A DNA stretch of 64,000 nucleotides from Opitutia bacterium (GTDB lineage Bacteria; Verrucomicrobiota; Kiritimatiellia; CAIQIC01; Lenti-01), in the NCBI GenBank assembly GCA_009928955.1, contig SABN01000002.1, positions 8,427-72,426 on the forward strand, given 5' to 3'. Positions 5,521 to 30,873 of the stretch are shown in pieces. Each line of letters begins with the position of its first letter. The first letter of the stretch is position 1. Under the pieces are notes generated by a model that was not told where the DNA came from, did not search any database, and saw only the letters and a program-made list of their open reading frames with translations. A program made the translations under genes and the position numbers.

Positions 5521-5533
5521 ACCCGGCCCTCCG

Positions 5534-6250: not shown

Positions 6251-6292
6251 TCCCCGCAGGCGGGGACGCGCGGCCCGTTTCCGGCGGCGACG

Positions 6293-6311
6293 TTTTCCAC
6301 GCTGTGGAAAA
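6293..6311. repeat. intergenic palindrome TTTTCCAC-GCT-GTGGAAAA (family member)
   Basis: Read directly. 8-bp arms with a 3-nt spacer, between the convergent trmD and DoxX gene ends. Flanked by two further hairpins: TCCCCGC/GCGGGGA at 6251-6266 and AACCGG-TTCG-CCGGTT at 6312-6327. Confidence 0.8.
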
Positions 6312-6328
6312 ACCGGTTCGCCGGTTTC

Positions 6329-7881: not shown

Positions 7882-7932
7882 AGGCCAGCAATCTACTATA
7901 GAATGCGGAAAATGCAAAAACCGCGGGAAAGA

Positions 7933-8493: not shown

Positions 8494-8528
8494 CGGCGGA
8501 AGATCCTACCTGGGGAAAACGGGGGCGA

Positions 8529-9038
8529 TCAGGGAGTTGCGGGCGGAGCCGGCGAACGGCCGACGAACGCGGCCACGAAACCGGGCTTCAGCGCGAGGAG
8601 CAGTCCGAGCGCAAGCTGCAAGGCGACGGGGGCCAATTGGCGCAACGCCAGTTGCGGCGAGGAGTCCCAGATCTGCCGGAACTCGAGCAGGGCGCGGGCC
8701 AACGGGGAGAGGGACCGCACCGTCACGAAGATGCCGATGAGCGCGACGCCGACGATCAGCGCCGGAACCCGTTCCAATCCCTCGACCGGAGCCTCGTCGC
8801 CCACGCCGACTTTGCGGGCCAGCCATTCGGTCTTCGCCAGCAGCACCCATGCGATGACCAGGGCAACCGCCAGATAGATCGTCAGTCCGGCCAAGCTCGG
8901 CAGGACTCCGGAGAGCGAACCGGAATCGCTGCGGGAAACCAAGGACATCATAATGGCCATTTGGGTGACGCCCAGCAAGGCCGTGTAGAGCTGGATCAGG
9001 CCCAGCAGCTTCGCGAAGACAAGAAACAACTTTTTCAT
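8529..9038 (-). CDS. hypothetical integral membrane protein
   Basis: 169 aa with about 5 hydrophobic helices. It starts 20 nt downstream of the ileS stop on the same strand. Confidence 0.55.
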   Translation of the reverse strand: MKKLFLVFAKLLGLIQLYTALLGVTQMAIMMSLVSRSDSGSLSGVLPSLAGLTIYLAVALVIAWVLLAKTEWLARKVGVGDEAPVEGLERVPALIVGVALIGIFVTVRSLSPLARALLEFRQIWDSSPQLALRQLAPVALQLALGLLLALKPGFVAAFVGRSPAPPATP

Positions 9039-13611: not shown

Positions 13612-13715
13612 GGAAAAATCTCCTTAGGTGCTTGACGATAGCGCGGTTGGAGGGATATAAACAAGCCATGAATCTGCAGCAGCGTTCATCGTGTGGACAT
13701 CCGGTTTCCGGGGAG

Positions 13716-16541
13716 ATGGATACGAGTATGAGAACACGCAAGGGTACAGGCCTCGTCGCCGGGCTGTTGAGTTTCATCGTCGCGGGAATGGCGTGGGCGG
13801 GAGTCGACGAAGATTTCGAATTTGCTTCCGGACTGGTTTCCTTCACGCCGTCGTTCCCCGAGTTCGCCCAGAAGGTGGTGGACGAGGTGCTGGCGAAGGA
13901 TCCGAGCCAGAAGGACCGCAGCAAGATCATCCAGGCGGAGATCCTGATCAAGCGCCGTCAGTTCGCGGAGGCGGAGGCGCTGATCAACGAGATGGGCCTC
14001 TCCAATCCGAAGTCGCAGGCGATCAGCCTGGCGCTGGCGAAGAATTATTTCGCGATCGGGGAAACCGACAAGGCGCGGACGCTGTACGACGCCTTCTTCA
14101 AGCAATACGAGACGCAGAAGCCGACGGACAAGGACGTGGCGCGCTTCTATCGCGACGCCGCGTTTCAATATGCCCAGATGAAGGAGATGATCGGCGACCA
14201 TGTGGCCTCGGCGGCGGCTTTCCAGCGGGTGGAGGACATCGTCGAGTCCAAGGAGCAAAAGCGGTCCATGATGCTCTTCCGCGCGCAGGCGCTGGTCAAG
14301 GCGGCGGAGCAGAAGGGCGGGGACGAGAAGAACAAGCTGCTGGACGATGCGAAGAAGGTGTGCGAGGCGCTGCAATGGGGCGGGCTGGACCTGCAGTTCG
14401 TGGATTCCATCGTCATCATGGCCAACATCGAGTTGGCGCGGGGCAATTCGGCGGGGGCCAAGAAGACGTTGATGCAGTACATGGACATCATCAAGCCGAT
14501 CGACGAGACGATCAAGGCGGAAGGCCTGCCGATGCGGGAGAGTCCGATGGCCGGCGCCCGCTCGCTGCTGGGCCGGCTGCTGAAGGAAGAGGCCGACGGG
14601 CTGGCCGGGCAGCCGGGCAAGGAGAGCGAGGCCATCGCAGCCTACAGCGGGGCGCTCGGCGAATACTACAATGTCTTCGTCAAATACGGCGACAGTCCGT
14701 GGGGGCCGACGGCCGGGCTGGAGTCCAAGGCCATCAAGGAAATCCTGGAAGCCAAGTATGGCAAGGTGGTGAAGATCGATCTGCCGCCGGAGTTGGCCAA
14801 CGCGGCGGCGGGCACGGAATTCCGGATGGCCGACAATCTTTTCCTGCAGAAGAAGTACGCCGAAGCGGCGGCGGAATACTTGCGCGTGCTGGCGCAGTTC
14901 CCGGAGGCGGGCGAGTTGTCGGTGGGCGCGCTGGGCAATCTGGTGCAGTGCTACATGAACCTGAATGATTCGCTCTACGCGAAGATGACGGCCAACTACC
15001 TGGGCGAACGCTTCGCCAAGAAGAGCGACATTCCCGCCAAGGCGCTGGCCTCGGTGGCTCAGCTCTACAACAAGGCGGGAAACGCCGAGATGTCCCTGTA
15101 CATGTTCGACCGCTACCTGGCCTATTGCCCGACGGATCCGAATGCGGGCAAGATCCTGTTCTATCTGGCCGCCAAGGCGGAGCAGGATGGCAAGCAGGAT
15201 CTGGCGGACGCCTATCTGGCCAAGATCATCACGGATTACCCAGAGGATCTGAACTATCCCAAGGCGCTGAGCAAGCGCGCGTGGAAATCCTATATGGACA
15301 AGGATTATGCGGGCGCCATCCCCGGGATGACGCTCTACATCGCGGAGTCCGTGGCCAGCCCCACGCGGGCGCAGGCGATGTTCGCCCTGGGCGACAGCCT
15401 CCGCCGCACGGACAAGATGACCGATGCCGTCCGCCAATTCGACGCCTTGGTCAAGGCGATTTCGCCCGCGAACAACCCCTATGGCCGGTCCGTCGAGGAC
15501 ATCAAACGGAACGAAGCGCTGCTGGAACAGACCCGGTTCTATCTCGCCTTCAGCCTGAGCCGCCTGCCGAGCGACGGCACCCGCCGGGCCGCCATCGCGA
15601 AGATCGACGAATTCCTGGGCTTGTATCCGCAGTCGGCCTTGGCGGCGAAGGCGCTCAACCTGAAGGGGTCCCTCCAGATGGCGATGAAGGATCCGGGGGC
15701 GAACGAGACCTTCGCGCGGCTGGCGCGGGACTATCCTTCCACGGACGAAGGCAAGAGCGCCCAGTATGCGCGCATCAACGGCGCGCTGGAACTGGGCCAG
15801 TTCGACCAGGCCCAGGCGGCGCTCGCCGCCATGCTGGCGAGCCCGGCGAGCTATTCCGTGGAGGAATTCGCGCGCGTCGGACAGGCCATGCTCGACAAGG
15901 CCCAGTGGAACGAGACCATCCAGGCTTTCGGGCAGGTCGTCGGCAAGACGGAGAACCGCCCGCTGCTGGAGCGCGCGCTCTACGGCATCGGCGCGGCCAA
16001 GTACGAGCTGGGCGATTCCGCCGGCGCGGTGGAATCGCTCAACGACCTGATGACCCGTTGGCCCAACTCCGGATTGTTCTACCAAGCCAAGTTCAAGCTC
16101 GCCAGCGCCAACCTGAAGCTGAACCAGATCGCCGCCGCGAAGATCGCGCTCAACGACGTGTTCAAGTATGCCCGCGAAGCCGAGCTGGTCAACGACGCCA
16201 GCTTGCTTTACGCCCAGGTGCTCCTGCAGGACGGCGACCAGATCGGCGCGCTGGCGACCTACAAGCGCCTGGAATATTTCAGCAGCCAGAACATGAAGAC
16301 CGAAAAGGAGCGCGCCCAGATCGAAACGGCCATCCTGGCCGGCATCGAGCTGGCCACGGAGATGGGGCGGTTCGCCGATGTGCTGGAAAGCTGCGACCGC
16401 TATCTGCAGCTCTATCCCACCAGCCCGAAGATCAACGACATCCGCCAGAAACGCACCACGGCCACCCTGCAGGTCGCCGCGGACGTGGCGGTTCCGGCCG
16501 CGCCGGCGGCCCCCGTTTCACCCGCCGGAACCACGCCTTAA
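13716..16541 (+). CDS. secreted tetratricopeptide-repeat protein (large)
   Basis: Signal-anchor (GLVAGLLSFIVAGMAWAG) followed by about 900 aa of TPR-like helical repeats. Start taken at the ATG at 13716, preceded by GGGGAG (alternative start 13728). First gene of the ExbBD operon. Confidence 0.8.
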   Translation: MDTSMRTRKGTGLVAGLLSFIVAGMAWAGVDEDFEFASGLVSFTPSFPEFAQKVVDEVLAKDPSQKDRSKIIQAEILIKRRQFAEAEALINEMGLSNPKSQAISLALAKNYFAIGETDKARTLYDAFFKQYETQKPTDKDVARFYRDAAFQYAQMKEMIGDHVASAAAFQRVEDIVESKEQKRSMMLFRAQALVKAAEQKGGDEKNKLLDDAKKVCEALQWGGLDLQFVDSIVIMANIELARGNSAGAKKTLMQYMDIIKPIDETIKAEGLPMRESPMAGARSLLGRLLKEEADGLAGQPGKESEAIAAYSGALGEYYNVFVKYGDSPWGPTAGLESKAIKEILEAKYGKVVKIDLPPELANAAAGTEFRMADNLFLQKKYAEAAAEYLRVLAQFPEAGELSVGALGNLVQCYMNLNDSLYAKMTANYLGERFAKKSDIPAKALASVAQLYNKAGNAEMSLYMFDRYLAYCPTDPNAGKILFYLAAKAEQDGKQDLADAYLAKIITDYPEDLNYPKALSKRAWKSYMDKDYAGAIPGMTLYIAESVASPTRAQAMFALGDSLRRTDKMTDAVRQFDALVKAISPANNPYGRSVEDIKRNEALLEQTRFYLAFSLSRLPSDGTRRAAIAKIDEFLGLYPQSALAAKALNLKGSLQMAMKDPGANETFARLARDYPSTDEGKSAQYARINGALELGQFDQAQAALAAMLASPASYSVEEFARVGQAMLDKAQWNETIQAFGQVVGKTENRPLLERALYGIGAAKYELGDSAGAVESLNDLMTRWPNSGLFYQAKFKLASANLKLNQIAAAKIALNDVFKYAREAELVNDASLLYAQVLLQDGDQIGALATYKRLEYFSSQNMKTEKERAQIETAILAGIELATEMGRFADVLESCDRYLQLYPTSPKINDIRQKRTTATLQVAADVAVPAAPAAPVSPAGTTP

Positions 16542-16565: not shown

Positions 16566-17354
16566 ATGAAGACAAATAAACTCATCCTGATCGGTCTGGC
16601 CGCAGCCTGTGTCGCCGGGACGGCCCTGGCGGCTCCCTATGTGATGATGCCCAACGGAAGCCGGGTGGACGGCACGGCCATCCGCGCCCTCTCGACCGGG
16701 GACATCAACCTGACCACCGACGTGGGCGTGCGCACCTTCCCCAAGGGCAGCTACCTGAAGGCCGTCGCCGACAAGCCGGCGGAGTACGACCAGGCTGTCG
16801 CCGCGCGCAACGCCAAGAAATACGACGACGCGGTCAAGCTGCTGGAAGGCGTCGTGGTGCGCTTCCGCTATCTCGGATGGGATGTGGAGGCCTCGAAGCT
16901 GCTGGCGCAGGTCCTGCTGGAGAAGGGCGACGCGGAGGGCGCCGTGCAGGCCTATGAGAAGCTCTTCCTCGTGTCGCCCGAGGCCAGGCAGAATGCCGAC
17001 GTGGCCTGGGGCCTGCGCCGCGCCATGCTGCAGGCGAAACAGTATCCCGCGTTGCTCCGCCAGCTCGACGCGGTGGCCGCCTCGGGAAGCCGGCCCGACG
17101 CCGCCCGGGCCCAGACCATGCGGGGCGACATCCAGCTGGCCCAGAACAATCTCGAGCTGGCCGCGATGGATTACCTGCGCACCGCCATCCTCTTCCAAGA
17201 CGTGAAGGATGTCGCGATCCAAGGCGAGGCCCACTTCAAGGCCGCTTCCGCCCTCGAGCAGATGCGCGAGCCGCGCGCGAAGGATTTGTACAAGAAAGTG
17301 GTCTCGGAATACGGGGCGTCCCCCTATGCCGCGCAGGCCAAAGGCAAGATCTAG
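16566..17354 (+). CDS. secreted TPR-like protein (small)
   Basis: Signal peptide MKTNKLILIGLAAACVAGTALAAP followed by TPR-like helices. 262 aa. Confidence 0.8.
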   Translation: MKTNKLILIGLAAACVAGTALAAPYVMMPNGSRVDGTAIRALSTGDINLTTDVGVRTFPKGSYLKAVADKPAEYDQAVAARNAKKYDDAVKLLEGVVVRFRYLGWDVEASKLLAQVLLEKGDAEGAVQAYEKLFLVSPEARQNADVAWGLRRAMLQAKQYPALLRQLDAVAASGSRPDAARAQTMRGDIQLAQNNLELAAMDYLRTAILFQDVKDVAIQGEAHFKAASALEQMREPRAKDLYKKVVSEYGASPYAAQAKGKI

Positions 17355-17392: not shown

Positions 17393-18199
17393 ATGTCCAA
17401 GAAATCTCGGTTGGTGGTGTGGATGGTGTGGATGGCGGCCTTGGTGCTGCTGCCGGGCGTCGCTTTGGCGCAAGAGGGGGCGGCCGCCGCGGGCGGCGCG
17501 GGCGAGTTGGTGATGGACCAGGCGACGGCGGCCTCGTCGGCCAGCGACGGCGGCGGAATGGGCCTGTGGTCCGTCATCGCCGGTTCCGGTTGGCTGGGCA
17601 TCGTCCTCTGGATGGCCTTGCTGGGCTGCTCCGTGGCCGCCGCATGGCTGGCCATCGACTTCTTCATCACCGTCAATCCCAAGAAGATCATTCCGGATTC
17701 GCTGGTGAACGATGTCCGCGAGGCGATGGAGCAGGGCGACGTGATGAAGGCGCTGCAGCGCTGCGAGCAGGATCAAGGCTCGCTGTCGTCGATCCTGATG
17801 GCCGGATTCCGCAACGTGAAGGAAGGGTTCGAAGTGATCCAGGAGCAGGTCGGGTCGGCGGCCGATCTGGAGAGCGAAAAGTTGATGCAGCGCGTGTCCT
17901 ACCTGAACATGTGCGGCAGCATCGCCCCGATGCTCGGGCTGCTCGGCACGGTGCAAGGCATGATCATGGCGTTCGCCAACCTGGCCAACACGCAGGCGGG
18001 CGCGGCCCAGCAATCCATGCTGGCCACGAACATCGCCCAAGCCCTCTGGACCACGGCGGCGGGCCTCTGCGTGGCCATCCCGGCCGTCTCGCTCTACACC
18101 TACTTCAAGAACCGCCTCTCCCGCATCATCCTGAGCATGGAAGGCCTCACGATGGACCTGATCAAGGCCCTGCGGAACGTGGAAGTGGTGGAAGAATAG
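17393..18199 (+). CDS. exbB: MotA/TolQ/ExbB proton-channel family protein
   Basis: C-terminal core SIAPMLGLLGTVQGMIMAF...LWTTAAGLCVAIPAVSLYTYF is typical of ExbB/TolQ. It has a cleavable-looking N-terminal signal. Confidence 0.9.
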   Translation: MSKKSRLVVWMVWMAALVLLPGVALAQEGAAAAGGAGELVMDQATAASSASDGGGMGLWSVIAGSGWLGIVLWMALLGCSVAAAWLAIDFFITVNPKKIIPDSLVNDVREAMEQGDVMKALQRCEQDQGSLSSILMAGFRNVKEGFEVIQEQVGSAADLESEKLMQRVSYLNMCGSIAPMLGLLGTVQGMIMAFANLANTQAGAAQQSMLATNIAQALWTTAAGLCVAIPAVSLYTYFKNRLSRIILSMEGLTMDLIKALRNVEVVEE

Positions 18200-18225
18200 C
18201 CTTCGCCTCCCCCGAAGAGTCGACC

Positions 18226-18651
18226 ATGAGAAAAAACAAGTTTCCAGATGCCCAGCTGGACATGACGCCGATGATCGACGTCGTGTTCCAGCTGATCATC
18301 TTCTTCGTCGTCACGGTGGATCTGCAAACCAAGGCCGTCGACACCAAGATCCGCTTGGCGATGTCGCCGAACGGGCCGGTCGAGGAGCAGAAAGACCCGC
18401 GGACGGTGGTGGTGGACGTGGATGCCGACGGCGACATCTCCATCATGCGCACCCGCCTGAGCGAAGGGCAGCTGTTCAACATCCTGAACAAAGCCCGGAA
18501 CGAGTCGGGACAGAGCACGCCCATCGTGATCCGCGGCGACTTCCAGGCGAAGCACGAGGCGGTCAAGCGGGTGATGGACGTCTGCGGCAAGGCGGGCCTC
18601 TGGAAGATCCGCTTCGCCGCCCTCAAGGAAAAAGCGACGCCCCCCTCCTAA
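18226..18651 (+). CDS. exbD: biopolymer transporter ExbD/TolR
   Basis: MRKNKFPDAQLDMTPMIDVVFQLIIFFVV with the conserved TM Asp. Start at 18226 within track ORF 17419..18651. Confidence 0.9.
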   Translation: MRKNKFPDAQLDMTPMIDVVFQLIIFFVVTVDLQTKAVDTKIRLAMSPNGPVEEQKDPRTVVVDVDADGDISIMRTRLSEGQLFNILNKARNESGQSTPIVIRGDFQAKHEAVKRVMDVCGKAGLWKIRFAALKEKATPPS

Positions 18652-18666
18652 AGAAAAGGGAATTCC

Positions 18667-19080
18667 ATGGCTAGACAACGGAAAAAACCTGAAATGGCGG
18701 CCGGGCAGCTCGAAATGACGCCCATGATCGACGTGGTGTTTCAGCTGCTGATCTACTTCATCGTGACGATCAAGCCGGTGGATGTGGTCAGCAACCTGGA
18801 TGTGTTCCGGCCGGCGCCGGACAGCAAGGCGGATCCAAGCGACAAGCCCCCGCAGCTGATCCGGGTCGGCGTGTATCAAGATGGCTACACCATCAACGAC
18901 AATCCGATCTCGCTGGACGGACTGGACACCGCCTTCGCCCGGATGGCCTCCATCGATGCGGGACAGACGGTCATGATCACGGTGTCGGCGGTGTCGGAGC
19001 ACGGCAAGCTGGTCCGCGCCTTGGATCTGTGCGCGAAGAACGGCCTGAAGAGCCTTTCGGTGGTCAGCGCCTCGAACTAG
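18667..19080 (+). CDS. exbD: biopolymer transporter ExbD/TolR (second copy)
   Basis: LEMTPMIDVVFQLLIYFIVT with the conserved TM Asp. 137 aa. Confidence 0.9.
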   Translation: MARQRKKPEMAAGQLEMTPMIDVVFQLLIYFIVTIKPVDVVSNLDVFRPAPDSKADPSDKPPQLIRVGVYQDGYTINDNPISLDGLDTAFARMASIDAGQTVMITVSAVSEHGKLVRALDLCAKNGLKSLSVVSASN

Positions 19081-19111
19081 AATTTGGCACGCTGGGAGAA
19101 CGGAGAGAGCC

Positions 19112-20593
19112 ATGGATGCATCAATCAGGGCGTTGCATAAAAATGTGATGGAATGGATGGCGGGCCCGACCGGGTCCGTCACCCTCCATGTGGCCATGAT
19201 TTTGGCCCTGTTGTTCCTGGTGGATTTCTCCACCAAGGAGAAGCAGTCGGAGATCGAAGTCAAGATCGTCGACGTCGACGATCAGCAGCTGGATGAACTG
19301 CTCGAAGATCTCAAGCCCCCCGAAGATCTGCCGGAGATGGTGGATACCGTCACGCCGCCGGATGTCAACATGGACATGACTCCGCCCCCGGACGTCCAGG
19401 ATTTCGCCGCCGCGCCCGTCATGGACACGGTGACCGAGCTGGACATCGCCTCCGACGCGATCAGCCCGATCATCATGAAAGGGCTGGCCCCCGGCCAGAT
19501 GTCCAACCGCAGCGGCGCGGGCCGCGCGGCCTCCATCGGCGCCTTCGGCGGCCAATGGGGGCAATATGCCGAAGCCGCGGTGCTGCGCGCGCTGGAATGG
19601 CTGCGCATCAACCAGAACCCGGAAGGCTCTTGGGGCACGAACGACAAGGAAGCCTATGCGGGGCTGGCCATCCTCACCTACCTGGCGCACGGCGAAACCA
19701 CCGCATCCGAGAAATATGGCCAGACCGTGGAACGGGCCATCCGCTATCTGGTCGCCCGCCAGAACGAAAAGGGTGAATTTGTTAAAACCGAGGGGGCCGG
19801 GGGCGTGTATGCCCATGCCATTGCGACCTACGGCATCAGCGAAGCGTATGGCATGACCCGCATCCCTTCCCTCAAGCCCGTCATGGAAAAAAGCATTCAG
19901 TTGCTGCTCAATGGGCAACAAGGCCATGGCGGCTGGGTCATGTATACGTTTGATAAAGGCGAATCCGGCAAGTGGGACGTGTCGCTTTCCGGGTTTTGCA
20001 TTCAGGCGCTGAAGGCCGCCTACATCGCCGGCGCAGAAAACCCGGGGCTGAAAGCGGCCATGGACAAAGCGGCGGCCTTCTTGATCCAGCGGCAGCGTGA
20101 AGACGGCGGATTCCCGTATTCCGCCGCCAATCCAGGCCGCCAGCCCAACATGACCGCCGTCGGGGTCCTCTGCCTGCAACTGCTCGGCTATGGAAATGAC
20201 CCGGCCACCAAGTCGGGCCTGAGCTTTCTCCGCGATGCGGATTGCAGCTGGCAAAAGCCCGAGCAAGCGCCCATCTATTCCTGGTACTATGTCAGCCAGG
20301 CCAAGTTCCACCAAGGGGGGGCGTCATGGACGGGTTGGAACAACAAGTTTGCCCCCACGCTCATTCGGAATCAAAATCCAGATGGCAGTTGGGTCTCGCC
20401 CGGCCATGCCTTGCCGGGAGATGGCGTCACCAGGGAATTCCGGGGGGAAGGGATCAACAGCCAGTTGTACGCCACCACCTTGGCCGCGCTGACCTTGCAG
20501 GTCTATTACCGCTTCCTGCCGACCTATCAGCCCATCGAAACCAAGACCATCGACCAGAAGTCTGAAACCGATGTGCAGATCGAGATCATGTAG
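19112..20593 (+). CDS. TonB-like membrane anchor + Pro-rich linker fused to prenyltransferase/squalene-cyclase-repeat (alpha/alpha toroid) domain, copy 1
   Basis: N-terminal TM helix GSVTLHVAMILALLFLV (S-x3-H) and a Pro/Asp-rich linker (KPPEDLPEMVDTVTPPDVNMDMTPPPDV). About 330 aa follow with repeated ...LRALEWLRINQNPEGSWG..., RQNEKGEF, GQQGHGGW, RQREDGGFPY, NQNPDGSW motifs. Confidence 0.85.
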   Translation: MDASIRALHKNVMEWMAGPTGSVTLHVAMILALLFLVDFSTKEKQSEIEVKIVDVDDQQLDELLEDLKPPEDLPEMVDTVTPPDVNMDMTPPPDVQDFAAAPVMDTVTELDIASDAISPIIMKGLAPGQMSNRSGAGRAASIGAFGGQWGQYAEAAVLRALEWLRINQNPEGSWGTNDKEAYAGLAILTYLAHGETTASEKYGQTVERAIRYLVARQNEKGEFVKTEGAGGVYAHAIATYGISEAYGMTRIPSLKPVMEKSIQLLLNGQQGHGGWVMYTFDKGESGKWDVSLSGFCIQALKAAYIAGAENPGLKAAMDKAAAFLIQRQREDGGFPYSAANPGRQPNMTAVGVLCLQLLGYGNDPATKSGLSFLRDADCSWQKPEQAPIYSWYYVSQAKFHQGGASWTGWNNKFAPTLIRNQNPDGSWVSPGHALPGDGVTREFRGEGINSQLYATTLAALTLQVYYRFLPTYQPIETKTIDQKSETDVQIEIM

Positions 20594-20616
20594 GACATCC
20601 GCCTCTGGGCATCCTG

Positions 20617-20648
20617 CCGCGCGCCTTTCCGGGCGCGCGTTTTTTTTG
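20617..20648 (+). terminator. rho-independent terminator
   Basis: CCGCGCGCC-TTTCC-GGGCGCGCG stem-loop followed by T8. Confidence 0.75.
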
Positions 20649-20718
20649 GCGTTTTTTTGAAAAATTCCGCTGGCCTACGGCCGGGGCGGGGGGTATCCTC
20701 ACAGTCAAGGAGGCGCGT

Positions 20719-22182
20719 ATGGATTCCTCAATCAAGGCTTTGCACAAAAACATCGCGGAATGGATGGCGGGGCCGACCGGCGCCGTGATCCTCCACGTGT
20801 CCCTGATCTTGGCGCTTCTTTTCTTGGTGGATTTTTCCACCACGCCCGACGATCCGACCATCGAGTTCAAATACGTGAAGGCCGATATGCCGCCGCTGGA
20901 TCCGGATCCCCCCCCGCTCCTGAAGCCGTTGGACAACATTGATCTGCCCCCGGAGATCACGCCTCCCGACGTCAATCTGGCGGATGTCCCGACCCCGCCC
21001 GAGACGGTCGATTTCACTCCGCCTTCTCCGGCGGCGGAATTCCCCGCCTTGGCGTTGGATCCCGCCATCAGCGTGGTCATCATCGAGGGCCTTCGTCCAG
21101 GAGCCATGGGCGACCGCGTCGGCGATGAAAACCGCAAGCGGGCCGGATTGACCCATGGAGGCGAGTGGGGCGCGGTTGCCGAAGCGGCGGTCCTGCGCGC
21201 CCTCGAGTGGCTCCGCGTCAACCAGAATCCGGACGGCTCGTGGGGCACGAGCGACCGGGAGGCCATGGCCGGGCTGGGCATCCTGACCTATCTGGCCCAC
21301 GGCGAAACCACCGCTTCGGAAAAGTACGGAGAGACGGTCACGCGCGCCATCCAATATCTCGTGGCGCGCCAGAACGAGGCCGGCGAATTCGCCAAGACGG
21401 ACACCACGGCTGGCACCTATTCGCAGGCCATCTGCGTGTATGCCTTGAGCGAGGCCTATGGCATGACCCGCATCCCCTCGCTCAAGCCCGCGATGGAGAA
21501 GGGCGCCGAGGTGCTCATCCAAGGCCAGCAGGCCAACGGCGGATTCGATTATCGCTTCGAAAAAGGCGCGCGCCGCGACACCTCGCTCGGCGGCTGGTGC
21601 AGCCAGGCGCTGAAGGCGGCCTTCATCGCCGGCGCGGAGAATCCCCGCCTGAAGACGGCGATGGATCTGGCCGTCGCCGACATGAAGTCCGTCCAGAAGG
21701 CGGACGGGAGCTTCTATTACAGCCACGTGGGCGCAAGCCATTCCACCCACGGCATCACGGCCGTGGCCGTGCTCAGCATGCAGCTTCTGGGGCATGGCCG
21801 GGAAAAGCCGGTCCAAGGCGGACTCGATTTCCTGCGCGACGCCACTTGCGACTGGAAGAACCCGCCCGATTGGCCGATGTATGCCTGGTACTACATTGCC
21901 CAGACCAAGTTCCATCAAGGCGGCGCCAGTTGGACCGGATGGAACAATCGGTTCGCCCCCCAGTTCATCCGCAACCAGAATCCCGACGGCAGCTGGAGTT
22001 CCGCCGGGCTTTCGTTGAAGGCGGGGGCCACCGGACGGGAGAACATGCATCCGGTCTATGCCACCACGATGGCCGCGCTGACCCTGCAGGTCTATTACCG
22101 GTTCCTGCCGACCTATCAGCCCATCGAGGAGCAGGCCGTCGACCAGAAGTCCGACGACGACGTGAAGGTCCAGATCCTGTAG
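20719..22182 (+). CDS. TonB-like anchor / prenyltransferase-repeat protein, copy 2 (tandem paralog)
   Basis: Same architecture as 19112..20593 and colinear over the full length. The anchor is GAVILHVSLILALLFLV (A-x3-H). It has its own RBS (AAGGAGG). Confidence 0.85.
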   Translation: MDSSIKALHKNIAEWMAGPTGAVILHVSLILALLFLVDFSTTPDDPTIEFKYVKADMPPLDPDPPPLLKPLDNIDLPPEITPPDVNLADVPTPPETVDFTPPSPAAEFPALALDPAISVVIIEGLRPGAMGDRVGDENRKRAGLTHGGEWGAVAEAAVLRALEWLRVNQNPDGSWGTSDREAMAGLGILTYLAHGETTASEKYGETVTRAIQYLVARQNEAGEFAKTDTTAGTYSQAICVYALSEAYGMTRIPSLKPAMEKGAEVLIQGQQANGGFDYRFEKGARRDTSLGGWCSQALKAAFIAGAENPRLKTAMDLAVADMKSVQKADGSFYYSHVGASHSTHGITAVAVLSMQLLGHGREKPVQGGLDFLRDATCDWKNPPDWPMYAWYYIAQTKFHQGGASWTGWNNRFAPQFIRNQNPDGSWSSAGLSLKAGATGRENMHPVYATTMAALTLQVYYRFLPTYQPIEEQAVDQKSDDDVKVQIL

Positions 22183-22202: not shown

Positions 22203-22240
22203 GCCGCGCGCGCCCTTCCCGGCGCGCGCCGTTTTTTCTC
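22203..22240 (+). terminator. rho-independent terminator (paralog of 20617..20648)
   Basis: GCGCGCGCC-CTTCC-CGGCGCGCGC stem-loop followed by a T run. Confidence 0.7.
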
Positions 22241-22275
22241 TATTTTTCCGCCGCGCTTTGCTAGAACCCACGTCT

Positions 22276-24057
22276 ATGCCCGGACCGGCCCCCATTCGAG
22301 TGCTCCCCGACGCGGTGATCAACCAGATCGCCGCGGGCGAGGTCGTGGAGCGCCCAGCGTCCGTCCTGAAGGAGCTCGTCGAGAATTCCATCGATGCCGG
22401 GGCCGCGCGCATCGAGGTGGAGGTGGTGGATGGCGGCCGGCGCCTGGTGCGCGTCCGCGACGACGGCGCCGGGATGGACCGCGACAACGCCTTGCTGTCC
22501 ATCGAGCGCCATGCGACCAGCAAGCTGCGCGAACTGAAGGATCTCGACACCATCGCCACGATGGGGTTCCGGGGCGAAGCGCTCGCGGCCATCGCGTCCG
22601 TCTCGCAGTTTTCGCTCACGACCAACCAGGCCGGGTCGGCGGCGGGCACCGAGATCCTGATCTTCGGCGGCAAGATCCAGGACGTGCGCGACGCGGGCGC
22701 TCCCCGCGGCACGGACATCGCCATCCGCAATCTCTTCTTCAACGTGCCCGCCCGCCGCAAGTTCCTGCGGTCCGCCCCGACGGAGTTCACGCACATCCGG
22801 CAGGCCTTCCTGCTGGAGGCGCTGGCGAACATCGGCATCGAATTCACGTTGCGGGCGGACGACGAAGACGTGTATCGCCTGCCCGCCGCCGAAAGCCTGC
22901 TGGACCGCATCCGCGACCTGTATGGCGCGGAAGTGGCCGGCCATTTGCGGCCCATCCGTTTCGGCAACGGGGTGGTGGAGATTGGCGGCCATGCCGGCAT
23001 TCCGCCGTACAGCCGCATGGACCGAGAACTGCAGGTCGTCTTCATCAATGGCCGCCCGTCGGGATCGCCCGTCGTCAATTTCGCCATCCAGAGCGCCTAT
23101 CGCGACGTGCTGCAGGGCGGCCGCTATGCGCCGCTCTTCCTGCACGTGAATCTGCCGCCCGACTTGGTGGATGTGAACGTCCATCCCGCCAAGAAGGAGG
23201 TCCGGTTCCGCCGGCCCACCGAAGTGCGCGATGTCATCATCGAAGCCATCCGGCTGGCGGTCGCCGGCCCCGAACTGCCCCGCGGCAAGCGCGACGACTT
23301 TCCGCGCGAATCCTCCCGCCCGCATGTGTATCTGCCGACCTCCGCCCCGATGGCCGCCCCTGCGCCGGCCGATGCGGCGGCGCCTTCCGCGCCGGCGCCC
23401 GTGGCCATGACGCAGCCCAATCTGGACTGGACGCCGCCGCCCGTGCCGGTCGCGGGCGAGACCGCCGTCCGCGCCGCGCCGTGGGCGGAATACCGCCTCA
23501 TGGGGCGCGTCGGCGGGCTGTATGTCGTCTTGGAAACCGCCGAGGGGCTCGTGCTGATGGATTCCCGCTCCGCGCATGAGCGCGTCATCTACGAGCGGCT
23601 GCTCGGCGCGCTGGAGAAGGGGAGCGTGCCGTCGCAGGGGCTGTTGCCGCCCGCGACCGTGCCGGTCACCCCCGCGCAGGGGAACGCCCTGCGCCAGCAT
23701 CTCGATCTGCTCAAGCGCATGGGATTCGGCGTGGCCGAGTTCGGCGCGGACACCTTCCTCGTGGACGCCTTGCCGGTCTGGGTGGCGGACGTGGCCGCCG
23801 GCACGCTCCTGTCCGATCTCGCCGACGGCCTGATGCAGGGCGGCAAGACGGCGGCCCAGGATTGGGCGCAGCCGCTGATCGCCTCCATCGCCGGGCGGCA
23901 GGCCGTCGGCCTCCAGCGCGAGCTGACCGACGCCGAGCTCAACGCCCTCATCCGCGACCTGGCCCGCACCGAGATGCCCTACACCTCGCCGCGCGGCAAG
24001 CCCACCGTCATTTTGCTCAGCCATCGGGAGCTGAACCGCAAATTCGGACGGGAGTGA
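22276..24057 (+). CDS. mutL: DNA mismatch repair protein MutL
   Basis: IRVLPDAVINQIAAGEVVERPASVLKELVENSIDAGA is a GHKL ATPase N-terminus. The C-terminal dimerisation domain ends ...CPHGRP-like SPRGKPTVI. Confidence 0.95.
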   Translation: MPGPAPIRVLPDAVINQIAAGEVVERPASVLKELVENSIDAGAARIEVEVVDGGRRLVRVRDDGAGMDRDNALLSIERHATSKLRELKDLDTIATMGFRGEALAAIASVSQFSLTTNQAGSAAGTEILIFGGKIQDVRDAGAPRGTDIAIRNLFFNVPARRKFLRSAPTEFTHIRQAFLLEALANIGIEFTLRADDEDVYRLPAAESLLDRIRDLYGAEVAGHLRPIRFGNGVVEIGGHAGIPPYSRMDRELQVVFINGRPSGSPVVNFAIQSAYRDVLQGGRYAPLFLHVNLPPDLVDVNVHPAKKEVRFRRPTEVRDVIIEAIRLAVAGPELPRGKRDDFPRESSRPHVYLPTSAPMAAPAPADAAAPSAPAPVAMTQPNLDWTPPPVPVAGETAVRAAPWAEYRLMGRVGGLYVVLETAEGLVLMDSRSAHERVIYERLLGALEKGSVPSQGLLPPATVPVTPAQGNALRQHLDLLKRMGFGVAEFGADTFLVDALPVWVADVAAGTLLSDLADGLMQGGKTAAQDWAQPLIASIAGRQAVGLQRELTDAELNALIRDLARTEMPYTSPRGKPTVILLSHRELNRKFGRE

Positions 24058-25286
24058 TGGACAAGACCCCGAAATCGATGCGCCTCCACATCGGCCTGTT
24101 CGGCCGGACCAACGCGGGGAAATCCACGTTCTTGAATCTGGTGGCGGGGCAGGACGTGGCCATCGTTTCGCCCCAGGCGGGCACCACGACCGATCCGGTG
24201 GAGAAGACGATGGAACTGCTGCCCGTCGGACCGGTGGTCTTCACGGACACCGGCGGGGTGGACGACGCCTCCGCGCTCGGCGACCAGCGGCGCGGAAAAA
24301 TGATGGCCGCGCTGCGCCGCATGGACGTGGCCGTGCTGATGGTGGAGCCCGACGTCTGGACGGAGCACGAGGACCGGCTTCTTCGCGAGATGAAGTCCGG
24401 CGCCCGTCCCTTCTTGGTCGTGGTGGGCAAGACGGATCTGCGGACGCCTTCGCCGGCCTTCCTCGCGCGGCTGAAAGCGGTGTCGCCGCACGTGATCGAA
24501 TCGACGGCGGTCCCCGGACAGCGGGACCGCGTGGTGAACGCCTTCAAGGCCGCGCTCGGGCAGCTGATGCCGGAAGGTTCGCTGCAGACGCCGGATTTCT
24601 TCGGCGGGGCGGTGCCGCCCGGCGGGATGGCGCTGCTGATCATTCCGGTGGACAAGGAGGCGCCCAAGGGGCGCCTGATCCTGCCCCAGGCGCAGGCGGT
24701 CCGCGCCGCGCTCGACGGCGGCGCCGTCGCGGTGGTGGCGCGGGAAACCGAATATCTCGCGGCCCTGGCCCGGCTGTCCGCTCCGCCGGATCTGGTGGTC
24801 TGCGATTCGCAGGTCGTCGACCGCATGGTGGCCGAGACGCCTCCGGACGTGCGTTGCACGACCTTTTCAATCCTGCTCGCGCGGCTGAAGGGCGACCTGC
24901 CCGCGATGGTGAAGGCCGCGCGGGGAATCGACGAGCTGCGGGACGGCGACCGGATCCTGATCGGCGAGGCTTGTTCGCATCATGCGAACGAGGACGACAT
25001 CGGCCGCCAGAAGATCCCGCGCTGGCTGAGGGAAAAGACCGGCAAGGCGTTGCAGATCGACGTGAGGGCCGGGCGCGATTGGCCGGCGGATCTGGAGCAG
25101 TACCAGCTCGTGATCCACTGCGGCGCCTGCATGCTGAACCGCCGCGAGATGCTCCACCGCCTGCAGACCGCTGCGGCGCGCGGCGTGCCCATGACCAACT
25201 ACGGCGTCGCCATCTCCCACCTGAAGGGCGTCCTGCCGCGCGTCCTCGAACCCTTCCCCGACGCGGCCGCCGCGCTGGACCCCTGA
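24057..25286 (+). CDS. hydF: [FeFe]-hydrogenase H-cluster maturation GTPase HydF
   Basis: GTPase motifs (GRTNAGKSTFLN, DTGG). APKGRLILPQ segment. C-terminal cluster motif CSHH...HCGACMLNRREM...MTNYGV. Colinear with Thermotoga HydF as I recall it. The ATG overlaps the mutL stop (TGATG). Confidence 0.9.
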   Translation: MDKTPKSMRLHIGLFGRTNAGKSTFLNLVAGQDVAIVSPQAGTTTDPVEKTMELLPVGPVVFTDTGGVDDASALGDQRRGKMMAALRRMDVAVLMVEPDVWTEHEDRLLREMKSGARPFLVVVGKTDLRTPSPAFLARLKAVSPHVIESTAVPGQRDRVVNAFKAALGQLMPEGSLQTPDFFGGAVPPGGMALLIIPVDKEAPKGRLILPQAQAVRAALDGGAVAVVARETEYLAALARLSAPPDLVVCDSQVVDRMVAETPPDVRCTTFSILLARLKGDLPAMVKAARGIDELRDGDRILIGEACSHHANEDDIGRQKIPRWLREKTGKALQIDVRAGRDWPADLEQYQLVIHCGACMLNRREMLHRLQTAAARGVPMTNYGVAISHLKGVLPRVLEPFPDAAAALDP

Positions 25287-25318
25287 GGATTCCATGCCGG
25301 ACGTCGCCGATCGCGCGG

Positions 25319-25442
25319 TTTTCCACGGTGTGGAAAAAAGTTTTCCACGGTGTGGAAAAAACGGGCCGGTTTTTCCACGCAATGGAAAACTTTTTTCGGT
25401 TTTTTCCACGCAATGGAAAAAAAGTTTCCACACTGTGGAAAA
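25319..25442. repeat. array of five TTTTCCAC-N3-(G/A)TGGAAAA palindromes
   Basis: Copies at 25319-25337, 25341-25359, 25371-25389, 25402-25420 and 25425-25442, separated by A/T-rich spacers. Read directly from the sequence. Confidence 0.9.
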
Positions 25443-25485
25443 CTTCCGCCGCCGGCTCCTGCGGCCGCCAACCGCAGGGGGGGCG

Positions 25486-26349
25486 GTGTGGCTCGCGCTG
25501 GCCGCGATGGGCCTGGGACTGGTCGCGGCTGCCGGGGCGGCCGCGCCGACGGGTGCGGAGCCCACGCTCGAGCTCGACAAGAAAGTTTATGTCCTGGGCG
25601 AAGCCATCCGGTTCTGGATCGGAGTGGCTCCGAAGGGGAACGAGCCGATTCCGGAGATCGAGGGGAACAGCTGTTTGCTGCATATCACGCGGCCGGATGG
25701 AACCCGCTCGGATTCCGCCGTGAGCTGGCCGTCGGATGGCGCGCTCGATCTGGGATGGACCGGCGGACAGGAGCTGCGGGGGGAGGAGATCCAGCTCGGG
25801 ACCTATTCGCTGTCCTTCGAATTCGCGGGGAAGCGGACGCCGCCGGTCGACCTGGTCGTGCGCGCGCTGCCCGCGCTTCGCGACGTTGCGGCGGAGTTCG
25901 TATTCGGCGCGCGAGGGGCGGTGGGGGCCGATGACTCGATTCCGGTCGTGCTGCGCGTGGCGAACCGCACGCCGCAGCTCCTCCGATTCCCCGTGTTTGG
26001 GGCGATCGGCACGACGATCTCCCTGCGGATCTACCGGACGGATCCGCCCCGGGGGGAGAGCTTGTTCTATCCGGACGAGTGGCTGCCGGACCCGAAAGCG
26101 GTCGCCTGCCCCGATGCAACGGGGTGGCGTCCCTTGGCCCGCACGCCGTTCATCGCCCTGCGGCCGGGGGAGACCTACGATGTGGAGTTGTCGATCCGTC
26201 CCGCCGATCGGTTCTGGGGGCCGGGGGAGTACGAGGTGGAGTTCTCCACCACGATTCCGCTGCTGCTGGGCGAGCCGGACGGGGAGTTCGCCGATGTCTG
26301 TCCGATCCGCCTGCGCGTGAGCGCGAAAGAGGACTTCACGATGCCGTGA
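25486..26349 (+). CDS. secreted hypothetical protein (Ig-like beta-sandwich domains)
   Basis: Track ORF 25294..26349 trimmed, because its first ~60 codons are just the palindrome array. Signal-like VWLALAAMGLGLVAAAGAAAP. The start is uncertain (GTG 25486 or ATG 25507). Confidence 0.6.
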   Translation: MWLALAAMGLGLVAAAGAAAPTGAEPTLELDKKVYVLGEAIRFWIGVAPKGNEPIPEIEGNSCLLHITRPDGTRSDSAVSWPSDGALDLGWTGGQELRGEEIQLGTYSLSFEFAGKRTPPVDLVVRALPALRDVAAEFVFGARGAVGADDSIPVVLRVANRTPQLLRFPVFGAIGTTISLRIYRTDPPRGESLFYPDEWLPDPKAVACPDATGWRPLARTPFIALRPGETYDVELSIRPADRFWGPGEYEVEFSTTIPLLLGEPDGEFADVCPIRLRVSAKEDFTMP

Positions 26350-26402: not shown

Positions 26403-28511
26403 ATGATGGCCGAAATGCAGGCGTTGCGCATAGTGGCGGTGGGATTGGCCTGGGCGGGACTGCTGGGCGCGGGGTCCGCGCGCGCCGGGACCGAGACGTT
26501 CGACGGCACGGGGTTGAGCAACACATGGGTGGAAGCGGGGTCATTCACGGGGCAGCAGAATGTCGTGTGGACCTTTGCGCATGCCAGCGGCACCCCGACG
26601 GTCTATACGAACAACCCGTCCATCACCTTGCAGACGGGGTCTTCCACCAACAAAGGCTGGTTGCTGTCCGGAACGATCACGGGCGGGTGCTCGCAAGTGT
26701 CGGCGGCGTTCAAGCAGGTCTTGTCGGCCACCGCGGATTGCGTGGTGTTGGTGAACGGCATCCAGATCGCCAACTACAAGTCTTCCGGCGTGTTGGGCAG
26801 CACGCAGGTGGCGGCCTTCGCGGCGTTCGATGCCTCGAACCGGATCCCGTTCACGAACGAGTTCACCCTGATGGTTTCCAACCGCTTGGCATCGAGTGGC
26901 CGGATGGCGATCGACGATCTGACGTGGGAGCCGTTCCGGCTGTTCGCGCGGCTGCCGCAGACGAACGCCTACCCGGCCTACGCGGGGAAAGAGTTCGAAG
27001 TGGCGGCGACGGTGTACGACATCGGCCAGGCGTGGACGGGAGAATGGAGCATCGCGCCGGCCTTCGCGGGGGGGATGTGGAACGCGGACACGACGAATCT
27101 GCTGCTGATTCCCTCCGCGGAGGATGTCGGGAAGACCTTCACGCTTTCATTCGCGGCGACCGATCCGGATGGAACCGGATATGCCCACCGGGCGAGCTGC
27201 CCGATGACCGTGCTGGAGGGCCCGAGATGGGTGGACTTCGAGGGGGCGGCCTTCGGATACGACATCGGCGCCGGCCGGGTGACGAACCTCAACGGAATGA
27301 ATTGGAGATTCCTCAACGTCGCGACCAGCGATTCCACGGACCGGAAGATCGGGGCCACCTCGGCGCGGTTCAAGCATACGACGGCGTTGGCTGCTTCCAT
27401 GGAAAGCATGGACGCCTTTCCCGGCATCGGAACGGTGTCGTTGAACTTTGCCTGTTATCGGTCGAACCGGGTGGTCACCTTTTCGCTGCAGATCCGCGGC
27501 GACGGGGAGGAGTGGGCGGAGGTGCCGAACGGAACCTTCAACGTGGAGGGGCACGACGACATCACCAACAGCGTGTTTTCGGTGGACGTGGGGCGTTCGG
27601 ACGACGTGTGGATCCGCCTGATCTCGACGGGGAACGCGGAGCAGATCGCCAACATCGACAACGTCCGCGTCCGGCCCGCCAACGAGCTGCTGCCCCGGCT
27701 GGTCTTCAGCGGGGAGACGAATGCGCCGGTCGGATGGGAGACCGTGCTGGAGTTCACGCTGCAGAATGCGGAGGCGGTCTTGCGGGAATGGACCTGGTCG
27801 ATGGTGCCGTCGAACGCGCACGCCGTGTTCACGGCCGATGACCACGGGCCGTTGCGGTTGCGGTTTTCGCCGGTGGATGCCAACGAATGGGACGACTACG
27901 AGGTGACCGTGTCGGCGAGCATCCCCGGCGTCGGCGCGGTCGGGGCGACGAGCGTGACGGTCCGCGTGGTTTCTCCGCCGACCTTCGAGCTGGTGCCGCG
28001 GGCCACGAACATCGCCGTGCCCGGGATCGTGGACATCAAGACGACCAATGTGGCGCTGCATGGGGGCGGGACCGACTGGGACAACGAGTGGTCCCTCTCG
28101 CCGCCGTTTGAAAAGCCTCCTTCCAAGAATCAGCGGAACTGGTACCGGATCGTCGGCGGCACGACCGAGGCCGACGTCGGTCCGCACACGGTGACGGCGG
28201 TGCTGACCGATCGGGGCACGGGCGTGACCACCACCAACGAACTCGTGCTGGTCGTGACGGGCGGCGGCGGCGGCGGCCTCACGAACGAGGTGTACGAGAT
28301 CGTGTCGTGCAGCGCGACGAACGTGGTGGTCAATGGCCGGACCGGGCGGGTGTTCCGGGTGGTGGGGACGACCAACCTGATGCTGTCCCAGTGGTCGTGG
28401 CAGGGGCCGCCCGTGACCAACGCCGATGGCGCGGATGTGTGGCTGGACTTGCCGACGGCCAACGAGGAGCGCGTCTTCTTCTATGGCGTCAAGGTGAGCG
28501 AAGCGCCTTGA
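26403..28511 (+). CDS. secreted hypothetical protein with two jelly-roll-like domains, Ig-like repeats and a C-terminal ...FFYGVKV module
   Basis: Signal peptide MMAEMQALRIVAVGLAWAGLLGAGSARA. 702 aa. Beta-rich with no catalytic motifs recognised. Confidence 0.75.
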   Translation: MMAEMQALRIVAVGLAWAGLLGAGSARAGTETFDGTGLSNTWVEAGSFTGQQNVVWTFAHASGTPTVYTNNPSITLQTGSSTNKGWLLSGTITGGCSQVSAAFKQVLSATADCVVLVNGIQIANYKSSGVLGSTQVAAFAAFDASNRIPFTNEFTLMVSNRLASSGRMAIDDLTWEPFRLFARLPQTNAYPAYAGKEFEVAATVYDIGQAWTGEWSIAPAFAGGMWNADTTNLLLIPSAEDVGKTFTLSFAATDPDGTGYAHRASCPMTVLEGPRWVDFEGAAFGYDIGAGRVTNLNGMNWRFLNVATSDSTDRKIGATSARFKHTTALAASMESMDAFPGIGTVSLNFACYRSNRVVTFSLQIRGDGEEWAEVPNGTFNVEGHDDITNSVFSVDVGRSDDVWIRLISTGNAEQIANIDNVRVRPANELLPRLVFSGETNAPVGWETVLEFTLQNAEAVLREWTWSMVPSNAHAVFTADDHGPLRLRFSPVDANEWDDYEVTVSASIPGVGAVGATSVTVRVVSPPTFELVPRATNIAVPGIVDIKTTNVALHGGGTDWDNEWSLSPPFEKPPSKNQRNWYRIVGGTTEADVGPHTVTAVLTDRGTGVTTTNELVLVVTGGGGGGLTNEVYEIVSCSATNVVVNGRTGRVFRVVGTTNLMLSQWSWQGPPVTNADGADVWLDLPTANEERVFFYGVKVSEAP

Positions 28512-30815: not shown

Positions 30816-30873
30816 GCTTGATTTGCGCAGAAACCACGATATATAGGGAACGAAGCATTTGGCAAAAGGCGGC

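Follow-up and report, generated by a model that had tools for sequence, protein, structure and literature searches.

The 64,000-nucleotide stretch analyzed here (the window; positions 8,427 to 72,426 of the forward strand of contig SABN01000002.1, from the Opitutia bacterium assembly GCA_009928955.1) carries eight co-directional plus-strand genes between 13.6 and 24 kb, in which an ExbB-ExbD-ExbD proton-channel motor is followed by two paralogous proteins, here called X and X', that join a TonB-like front end to an alpha/alpha toroid. X and X' probably belong, as non-canonical members, to the TonB/TolA class of transducers, which a motor drives and which span the periplasm, with the toroid as their output domain. 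The initial annotation, made from the sequence alone, had proposed a device energized by the proton-motive force and using a different output domain, and that reading is supported by profile hidden Markov model (HMM) scans, an AlphaFold2 model, synteny with exbB-exbD-exbD, an invariant Ser and His in the transmembrane (TM) helix, and a strand resembling the TonB D-box. The genes, with the two terminator-like hairpins among them, are as follows:

13632-16541, + strand: TPR1, a 969-amino-acid open reading frame (ORF); tetratricopeptide-repeat (TPR) protein, periplasmic; Pfam TPR_6, TPR_14, TPR_19, and YfiO-like repeats
16566-17354, + strand: TPR2, 262 amino acids, secreted; TPR_16 and TPR_6 matches
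17393-18199, + strand: ExbB/TolQ-type proton-channel subunit, 268 amino acids; PF01618, E = 3.5e-30
18226-18651, + strand: ExbD1, 141 amino acids; PF02472, E = 1.6e-23
18667-19080, + strand: ExbD2, 137 amino acids; PF02472, E = 9e-19
19112-20593, + strand: X, 493 amino acids; TonB-like anchor joined to an alpha/alpha toroid
20618-20649, + strand: terminator-like hairpin 3' of X; 9-bp G+C stem (20618-20639), then T8
20719-22182, + strand: X', 487 amino acids; paralogue of X with the same layout; SQHop_cyclase_C, E = 2.1e-10
22206-22239, + strand: terminator-like hairpin 3' of X'; 9-bp all-G+C stem (22206-22229), then a T run
22258-24057, + strand: mutL, downstream of X'

From TPR1 through X, the intergenic gaps are 24, 38, 26, 15, and 31 nt; the claimed order TPR-TPR-ExbB-ExbD-ExbD-X-X' is correct, and the claimed spacing of 15-40 nt was measured as 15-38 nt as far as X. 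The gap between X and X' is 125 nt and contains the first hairpin; because this hairpin is a strong terminator-like structure, the core transcription unit probably ends after X.

A TonB-like front end joined to a toroid

X and X' are 57% identical over their full length. The parts of X were delimited by motif, by composition, and by an AlphaFold2 model built on 34 homologues, low confidence in which is given by the predicted local distance difference test (pLDDT):

19160-19222, + strand: TM helix, residues 17-37, AGPTGSVTLHVAMILALLFLV, with S22-x3-H26-x6-L33; predicted helix 19-35 (AlphaFold2)
19223-19516, + strand: linker, residues 38-135; acidic, proline-containing, disordered; pLDDT <50 for residues 37-133
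19250-19270, + strand: D-box-like strand, residues 47-53, EIEVKIV, ~10 residues past the helix; core I48-E-V-K-I52
19517-20536, + strand: alpha/alpha toroid, residues 136-475; five QW-like repeats; no DxDD
20537-20590, + strand: C-terminal tail, residues 476-493, ..PIE...DQKS.DDV.IEIL-COOH; conserved in the close alignment of 34 homologues; predicted disordered

The SHLS motif of TonB and TolA is Ser-3x-His-6x-Leu-3x-Ser, and cryo-electron microscopy of TonB-ExbBD and TolAQR has shown its Ser and His to be the contact hub with TM1 of ExbB or TolQ (PMC12905483). The TM motif of X, GPxxSxxxH, follows a cytoplasmic tail of only 16 residues (that of X' is likewise short), and S22, H26, and L33 stand where SHLS has its S, H, and L; X' has Ala (A22) in place of the Ser and keeps H26 and L33. 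Residues M1, L8, N11, E14, A17, G18, P19, G21, and H26 are invariant in the close alignment, and in a distant alignment of 45 homologues, with a mean column identity of 27%, the G, S, and H of G-P-x-x-S-x-x-x-H are still invariant and the P nearly so; overall, the motif is invariant or nearly invariant from 83% down to ~30% identity. When 193 family members selected by motif (S, T, A, or G being allowed at the Ser position) were aligned on the His without gaps, 99% had Ser at that position, and 43% had, like X and X', Leu at His+7.

In Escherichia coli TonB, the alternating Ile/Val/Met side chains of the D-box (residues 43-54, QPISVTMVTPAD) are buried between two ExbD domains, the dimer of ExbD periplasmic domains capturing the D-box by strand recruitment (PMC10907165). 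The strand of X matches the D-box in its position and its alternating pattern, and may bind the two ExbDs in the same manner. Over the 193 aligned members, counting from the His, position +22 is I or V in 76%, +23 is E in 73%, +24 is V in 58% (hydrophobic in 88%), +26 is hydrophobic in 75%, and +28 is E in 71%; the alternation of hydrophobic and acidic residues is thus in a fixed register after the helix, and it is also present in the class-B anchors described below. The linker is 98 residues long and contains 11 Pro and 23 Asp plus Glu in X, and 22 Pro and 18 Asp plus Glu in X'. A short tail, a TM helix with an embedded His, and a Pro-rich linker had been described as the N-terminal layout of TonB in the initial annotation, and motifs, composition, and the structural model all agree with that description. 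A homologue search with the N-terminal 98 residues alone, aimed at finding the anchor on other output domains, yielded short gene fragments only.

The C-terminal 340 residues of X are all-alpha in the model, which predicts paired helices over residues ~135-475, most 10-residue blocks having a mean pLDDT of 85-97. X has five QW-like repeats (NQNPEGSW, QNEKGEF, NGQQGHGGW, QRQREDGGF, and NQNPDGSW), and X' has four. The Pfam matches of both proteins are limited to SQHop_cyclase_C (~2e-10) and weaker six-hairpin families, including weak matches to Pec_lyase and GH88; neither TonB_C (PF03544) nor TolA (cut-off E<=0.1 for both) nor the von Willebrand A (vWA) domain was matched. The scan of X and X' proposed at the outset therefore gave squalene-cyclase-type repeats without TonB_C or TolA_C, in line with the claim that ~330 amino acids of cyclase/prenyltransferase-type repeats stand where TonB has its C-terminal domain. 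A profile search of PDB sequences also returned cyclase QW-repeat matches only, with no TonB or TolA, and the best Foldseek matches in the PDB were the single-domain class II terpene cyclases 8pak, 1sqc, and MstE (E ~2e-6, 13-20% identity), followed by AprG, complement thioester (TED) domains, and GH76, GH105, and epimerase folds; the overall range was E ~1e-6 to 1e-4 at 10-20% identity. As modeled, the output domain of X and X' shares nothing with the C-terminal domain of TonB.

No DxDD motif was found in the toroid; the sole D.D[DT] in X is DVDD at linker residues 54-57, and X' has none. X also falls well short of the curated cyclase cut-offs (41.7 vs 322.7 bits for TIGR01787 and 37.2 vs 431.1 bits for TIGR01507). 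By its fold, then, the domain is a toroid like that of terpenoid cyclases, whose catalytic signature it lacks, as the missing DxDD and these sub-threshold scores show. Its polar residues H193, E195, E244, R250, D289, K301, H400, R441, and E442 are invariant in the close alignment. The tail behind the toroid (pLDDT <50 for residues 478-493) has an alternating pattern, and X' has it at the same position; its DD....I remnant survives in the distant and class-B alignments alike, and this conserved tail may be a docking peptide.

All three motor subunits scored above their Pfam thresholds. The best NCBIfam match of ExbB was TolQ, at 91 bits and thus under the TolQ cut-off; its conserved motifs are PMLGLLGTVQGM and NIaQALwTTAaGL, and the threonines of the GTV and TTA motifs are kept. 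At the N-terminus of ExbB (window 17393-17600), a signal peptide (..LPA.GWAQE), cleavable and conserved, is followed by an acidic, Ala-rich extension ahead of TM1, features by which the protein is assigned to the 'long ExbB' type. The TM Asp of ExbD1 sits in MTPMIDVVFQL, a motif conserved in 61 orthologues and also carried by ExbD2; the two ExbDs are 33% identical to each other and are conserved as separate orthologue sets in related loci, which marks them as a heterologous pair. Ahead of the motor, TPR1 likely truly starts at 13728 (MRTRKG...) and continues with a signal peptide, which its homologues also possess. In the TPR2 homologues of loci L001-L025, the signal peptide ends A-x-A|AP, and the mature N-terminus is strongly conserved (APYV..NG.RV.G.AIRA..NGDINL). 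TPR2 was considered as a lipoprotein and rejected as such, as the signal-peptide Cys of the window copy is not conserved in these homologues; it is predicted to be a soluble periplasmic protein.

Linkage, paralogues, and window context

A pattern scan of species-representative genomes found 334 stretches with relatives, from which the best 74 loci were taken and searched by tblastn with the window proteins; upstream linkage was scored in the 66 loci whose sequence reached 1.7 kb or more upstream of the toroid gene. In 58 of these, exbB-exbD-exbD lies directly upstream and co-linear, down to 41% identity of X, and 54 loci have the full TPR1-TPR2-motor set. Such conservation confirms, at the level of gene order, that the motor-toroid arrangement is not due to chance. 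The survey of Planctomycetes-Verrucomicrobia-Chlamydiae (PVC) genomes that the initial annotation had proposed thus found the fusion syntenic with exbB-exbD-exbD in Kiritimatiellia, Lentisphaerota, and many metagenome contigs. Seven of the eight loci without an upstream motor are second copies, and the eighth (L074) was the sole locus taken from its genome; two of the seven (L058 and L059) come from one genome whose operon was not among the loci taken, and for the other second copies the operon is on another contig of the genome. The toroid genes of L058, L059, and L074 are orphans. Multiple TonB paralogues have spread through other bacteria, Bacteroides thetaiotaomicron being an example (PMC10350073), and we liken the orphan toroid copies elsewhere in the same genomes to that spread.

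Tandem toroid genes were seen in only 13 of 73 related loci. Since X' lies behind a strong terminator-like hairpin and is rare in relatives, it is probably a lineage-specific duplicate. mutL is directly downstream of the toroid gene or genes in 38 of 73 genome loci, on one Lentisphaerota-type contig, and in class-B metagenome loci. This synteny with the toroid cassette is unusually deep for an unrelated housekeeping gene.

The proteins found with a profile of distant members were mainly from Lentisphaerota. On a 4-Mb Lentisphaerota contig, the order is TPR, an unannotated ORF, ExbB, ExbD, ExbD, toroid, and one Lentisphaerota contig has an orphan toroid gene. A metagenome contig obtained with the same Lentisphaerota-rich profile (L078) carries ftsQ-ftsA-ftsZ at positions 1-2460 and then TPR1, TPR2, ExbB, ExbD, ExbD, toroid, and mutL. 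A general link to cell division was considered and rejected, as by tblastn FtsZ/FtsA were beside the cassette only in this one of ~160 loci.

Four paralogues (L048:8716-10404, L063:8749-10431, L070:8713-10410, and L072:4314-6035) have an additional N-terminal head of ~80 residues (..ELIEKYLDD..) that resembles an anti-sigma factor, behind which the GPxGSxxxH helix, IEV strand, linker, and toroid are all kept. The L063 gene starts 3 nt past a gene for an extracytoplasmic function (ECF) sigma factor, and that of L072 overlaps one; the head itself had no Pfam match. From an anti-sigma-like head ahead of the helix and beside an ECF sigma gene, we assign to the family a topology with a cytoplasmic N-terminus and a periplasmic toroid. 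The head also suggests that these TonB-like paralogues are anti-sigma factors in their own right.

The family is a very large one: when 1.84 billion cluster representatives (50% identity) were searched exhaustively, 10,487 clusters were found at E<=1e-3, 6,387 at 1e-10, and 1,009 at 1e-30. Among the best 150 clusters, 80 have GPxxSxxxH (class A) and ~33 a different anchor (class B), which consists of a conserved cytoplasmic head of ~60 residues (..FREKW.KV..GLK.PK.SGEYK.A..Q..RL.AP..A..VP..), a proline-containing helix without the Ser and His, and the same I-E-V-type strand; in the cluster look-up, one class-B cluster was assigned to 'Verrucomicrobiota'. Scanning metagenomes with a class-B profile yielded 80 loci (L079-L159 range), in which the motor genes were found by HMMs. 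There, exbB-exbD-exbD is directly upstream in 11 of the 20 class-B loci with room upstream, in 9/19 with variant anchors, and in 7/9 of class A, and neighbor clustering found a TPR protein of ~1000 amino acids in 18 loci, one of ~266 amino acids in 19, and mutL in six. On one 166-kb contig, TPR, TPR, ExbB, ExbD, and ExbD are followed by two tandem class-B toroids and mutL; in L159, class-B toroid genes lie at 5306-6868 and 7009-8616. The same companions accompany both classes, and the six-gene cassette is therefore judged from these sequences to be ancient, its anchor having diverged between clades; class-B conservation likewise strengthens the predicted link between motor and toroid.

Within the window, the cassette is flanked by housekeeping genes: ileS and an aldo-keto reductase gene upstream, on the other strand, and mutL and hydF downstream. 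G+C content is 61-70% over most of the window, and true reading frames are marked by high third-position G+C. X is identical to the NCBI protein EOM72_00525, from a metagenome-assembled genome and annotated 'hypothetical protein', and its relatives come from Kiritimatiellia-type genomes. No Pfam match to TonB_C, Plug, or a TonB-dependent receptor occurred in the 38 window ORFs scanned (a few, including a 3001-amino-acid ORF at 35838-44843, were not in the scan), and to that extent the earlier statement that the window has no canonical tonB and no TonB-dependent receptor gene holds. An anti-phage defense motor such as Zorya was also considered and rejected, as PADLOC models had no match to TPR2, ExbB, ExbD1, ExbD2, X, or X'.

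Elsewhere in the window, five copies of an 18-20 bp palindrome, TTTTCCAC-N4-GTGGAAAA, are spaced at 22-31 bp over positions 25319-25450, directly 3' of hydF (23862-25286) and at the 5' end of a called ORF (25294-26349) without a Pfam match; the copies resemble an array of operators or else a palindromic element in repeated form. On the minus strand, positions 35838-46448 hold the 3001-amino-acid ORF and then a 516-amino-acid protein with SdrD B-like and DUF11 domains, which are probably giant surface or adhesin proteins; G+C falls to 0.53 at 46-48 kb, adjoining this region. Two large ORFs, 26403-28511 (702 amino acids) and 30859-33177 (772 amino acids), have good coding statistics but are without any Pfam match.

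Proposed mechanism and competing explanations

In the mechanism that we favor, an ExbB pentamer around an ExbD1/ExbD2 heterodimer would turn proton flow into movement, and X would dock on this motor by its N-terminal helix, through Ser22, His26, and Leu33. The two ExbD periplasmic domains would capture the strand at I48-V50-I52, and the acidic, proline-containing linker of ~100 residues would carry the toroid across the periplasm. The toroid would there serve as a binding module gripping a partner in the envelope, and the motor would pull on that partner or reposition it; among the co-encoded proteins, TPR1 and TPR2 are the most constant and are candidates for this partner or for a scaffold. 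It is possible, though we propose it only tentatively, that the cassette serves to handle large glycans or glycoproteins, or to bring them in through the outer membrane, in an energized process, in bacteria without the usual route through TonB-dependent receptors. A more far-reaching version, which we hold to be doubtful, is that TPR-TPR-ExbB-ExbD-ExbD-toroid constitutes a third class of proton-driven trans-envelope machine beside Ton and Tol in Kiritimatiellota, Lentisphaerota, and related lineages, the toroid gripping macromolecular cargo or an outer-membrane or pilus-like partner while the motor reels material into the periplasm; the anti-sigma-headed paralogues would, as a corollary, provide force-gated transcriptional signaling without a TonB-dependent transducer. 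If true, bacteria with the cassette would have a way of feeding on polymers that does not go through TonB-dependent receptors.

Several observations weigh against a motor-driven transducer. No sequence profile ties the N-terminus of X to TonB or TolA, either in Pfam or in the profile search of PDB sequences, and the likeness is thus one of motifs. The fourth SHLS position (His+11) is Val in X and I, L, V, or Y across the 193 members, and is never a conserved Ser. The class-B clade keeps the cassette, including mutL, without the Ser/His contact, and on that comparison the contact cannot be indispensable to the whole machine; occupancy of the TonB slot by X and X', as worded in the initial annotation, is a putative reading. 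Neither the Pfam scan nor neighbor clustering found an outer-membrane component encoded in the cassette; the invariant polar residues of the toroid could belong to an active site and not to a binding site; and a role in glycan uptake is at most suggested by the ecology of the clade and by a tentative parallel in Akkermansia.

The main rival to a force-transmitting X with a toroid output is a Tol-like envelope system, in which the cassette would be this clade's counterpart of Tol-Pal, with X in the place of TolA and TPR1 and TPR2 in that of CpoB/YbgF, stabilizing or constricting the outer membrane at division and importing nothing. The TolQ match of ExbB fits such a system, as does the setting of the cassette among housekeeping genes, usually as a single-copy core operon beside mutL, and a Lentisphaerae genome has been described with tolQ-tolR but no TolA, its tolB and pal lying elsewhere (PMC12204202). 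TPR1 also exceeds the YbgF cut-off (TIGR02795; 106 vs 90 bits), but this score is summed over six TPR stretches of a 969-residue repeat protein and is hence unspecific; similarly, the position directly after ftsQ-ftsA-ftsZ in L078 is that of only one locus in ~160. Neither tolB nor pal was present among the scanned window ORFs, in the cassette of any locus, or among its conserved neighbors. TolA, moreover, works by beta-strand augmentation through a TonB_C-like domain, which X does not have. On balance, we judge a Tol counterpart to be unlikely.

X could also transmit no force at all, being an inner-membrane-tethered periplasmic enzyme or scaffold, with a glycan, peptidoglycan, or polyprenyl-linked intermediate as its object, that assembles with or anchors the motor while the TPR proteins are the moving output. 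The many invariant charged and aromatic residues of the toroid would suit an enzyme, its fold class is rich in them (terpene cyclases, GH76/GH105, and epimerases), the weak Pec_lyase and GH88 matches point the same way, and class-B orthologues dispense with the Ser/His contact. However, DxDD is absent and scores are far under the cut-off of every enzyme family, class A shows no variation in the TM Ser and His, and both anchor classes keep the linker and D-box-like strand, for which a plain tether would have no reason. A static anchor is accordingly improbable.

Still less probable is a signaling device in which the toroid is a periplasmic sensor and contact with the motor, instead of doing mechanical work on a target in the outer membrane, gates a signal. 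The four paralogues with an anti-sigma-like head, two of which abut or overlap an ECF sigma gene, would be natural members of such a system, but the cytoplasmic part of X and X' is 16 residues without an output domain, the cassette contains no regulator, and the head is without Pfam support.

That X acts on isoprenoids, whether as terpene cyclase, mutase, or prenyltransferase, as NCBI names for its relatives ('terpene cyclase/mutase family protein' and 'prenyltransferase/squalene oxidase repeat-containing protein'), the SQHop_cyclase_C match, and the best structural neighbors would have it, was rejected as very unlikely because DxDD is lacking and the scores are sub-threshold, the match being limited to QW-type structural repeats in a single toroid rather than a two-domain cyclase, predicted to be periplasmic on a 100-residue tether and linked to a motor, not to isoprenoid genes.

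Comparison with known systems

To our knowledge, Ton and Tol were for decades the sole known routes by which a single-pass transducer conveys inner-membrane energy to the outer membrane. The toroid would be a further output domain of such transducers, structurally unrelated to the known ones and belonging to a very large family, and the six-gene cassette is conserved across whole phyla of polymer-degrading bacteria. It is a concrete and genetically tractable candidate for energizing outer-membrane processes in these bacteria, one of which, the cultured Tichowtungia aerotolerans, is reported to be without recognizable TonB and TolA (PMC12204202). The anti-sigma fusions and the class-B anchor are, moreover, natural experiments on the coupling of a transducer to a 5:2 motor.

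X resembles TonB in its single N-in TM helix with S-x3-H-x6-L, its D-box-like strand, and its proline-containing, periplasm-spanning linker; its gene is directly downstream of exbB-exbD, and there are several paralogues per genome, some of them orphans. It differs in lacking TonB_C, in the fourth SHLS residue not being Ser, and in having no TonB-dependent receptor among the window ORFs scanned; the cassette differs from Ton in its two different ExbDs and in the signal peptide of ExbB. Strand augmentation, the known mode of Ton-box binding, is not open to a 340-residue all-helical ring. With Tol-Pal, the cassette shares the SHLS-type helix, an ExbB whose best match is TolQ, and, as CpoB exemplifies, operon-encoded TPR proteins; unlike Tol-Pal, it contains neither tolB nor pal and no TolA domain III, and its TPR genes are upstream of the motor and far larger than CpoB. 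The strand of X ('SEIEVKIVD') also resembles the corresponding strand of E. coli TolA ('SSIDAVMVD').

In fold and in its QW-type repeats, the toroid is like the class II terpene cyclases and the beta subunits of protein prenyltransferases; it is unlike the class II cyclases in having no DxDD, sub-threshold scores, a single domain, and a predicted periplasmic location on a tether. The terpene cyclase/prenyltransferase label that toroid proteins currently bear is almost certainly wrong.

A possible parallel exists in the mucin utilization locus MUL1 of Akkermansia muciniphila, where amuc_0544 (mul1A) is called a mucin transport gene and Amuc_0546 is listed as a biopolymer transporter. If an orthologue in Akkermansia were confirmed, the cassette would be less novel and its function clearer. 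The order of MUL1 genes in this related PVC phylum is presumably TPR, TPR, ExbB, ExbD, and ExbD with hypothetical proteins.

The closest relative is the vWA cassette of Williams-Jones et al. 2025 (Mol Biol Evol, PMC12204202), whose survey sought motor genes in species without TolA and TonB, T. aerotolerans (Kiritimatiellota) being named among them, and added vWA as one further output domain; the same study recorded the Lentisphaerae genome mentioned above. The cassette comprises a gene for a TPR protein, a tolQ-like gene, two heterologous tolR-like genes, and two tandem SHLS-anchored transducers, each with a conserved-His SHLS helix, a motor box, a domain II of ~100 residues, and a C-terminal von Willebrand A domain; in AlphaFold 3 models, the conserved His docked the transducer helix where TonB binds, and no phenotype was reported (PMC12204202). 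A TonB-like anchor with a foreign output behind a TPR-tolQ-tolR-tolR cassette is thus already published for PVC bacteria, and the concept, of which the initial annotation was aware of no experimental description, is not new, whereas the toroid output is: prenyl, cyclase, squalene, terpene, and toroid are unmentioned in the text or supplement of that paper, and our literature search found no description of a toroid-output transducer. Within the scope of our search, what is new is the toroid output, how large and conserved its family is, the fusions to anti-sigma-like heads, and the class-B anchor. The two systems share their phylum, the logic of their cassettes, a conserved-His helix, a disordered linker with a strand, and an output that is not TonB_C. 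They differ in that the anchor is SIGIHVILILLAGS in the vWA transducers and GPTGSVTLHVAMILALL here, in that the present cassette has two TPR genes and a conserved mutL downstream, and in the output itself, which is a double Rossmann vWA domain there and an alpha/alpha toroid, with no vWA match, here.

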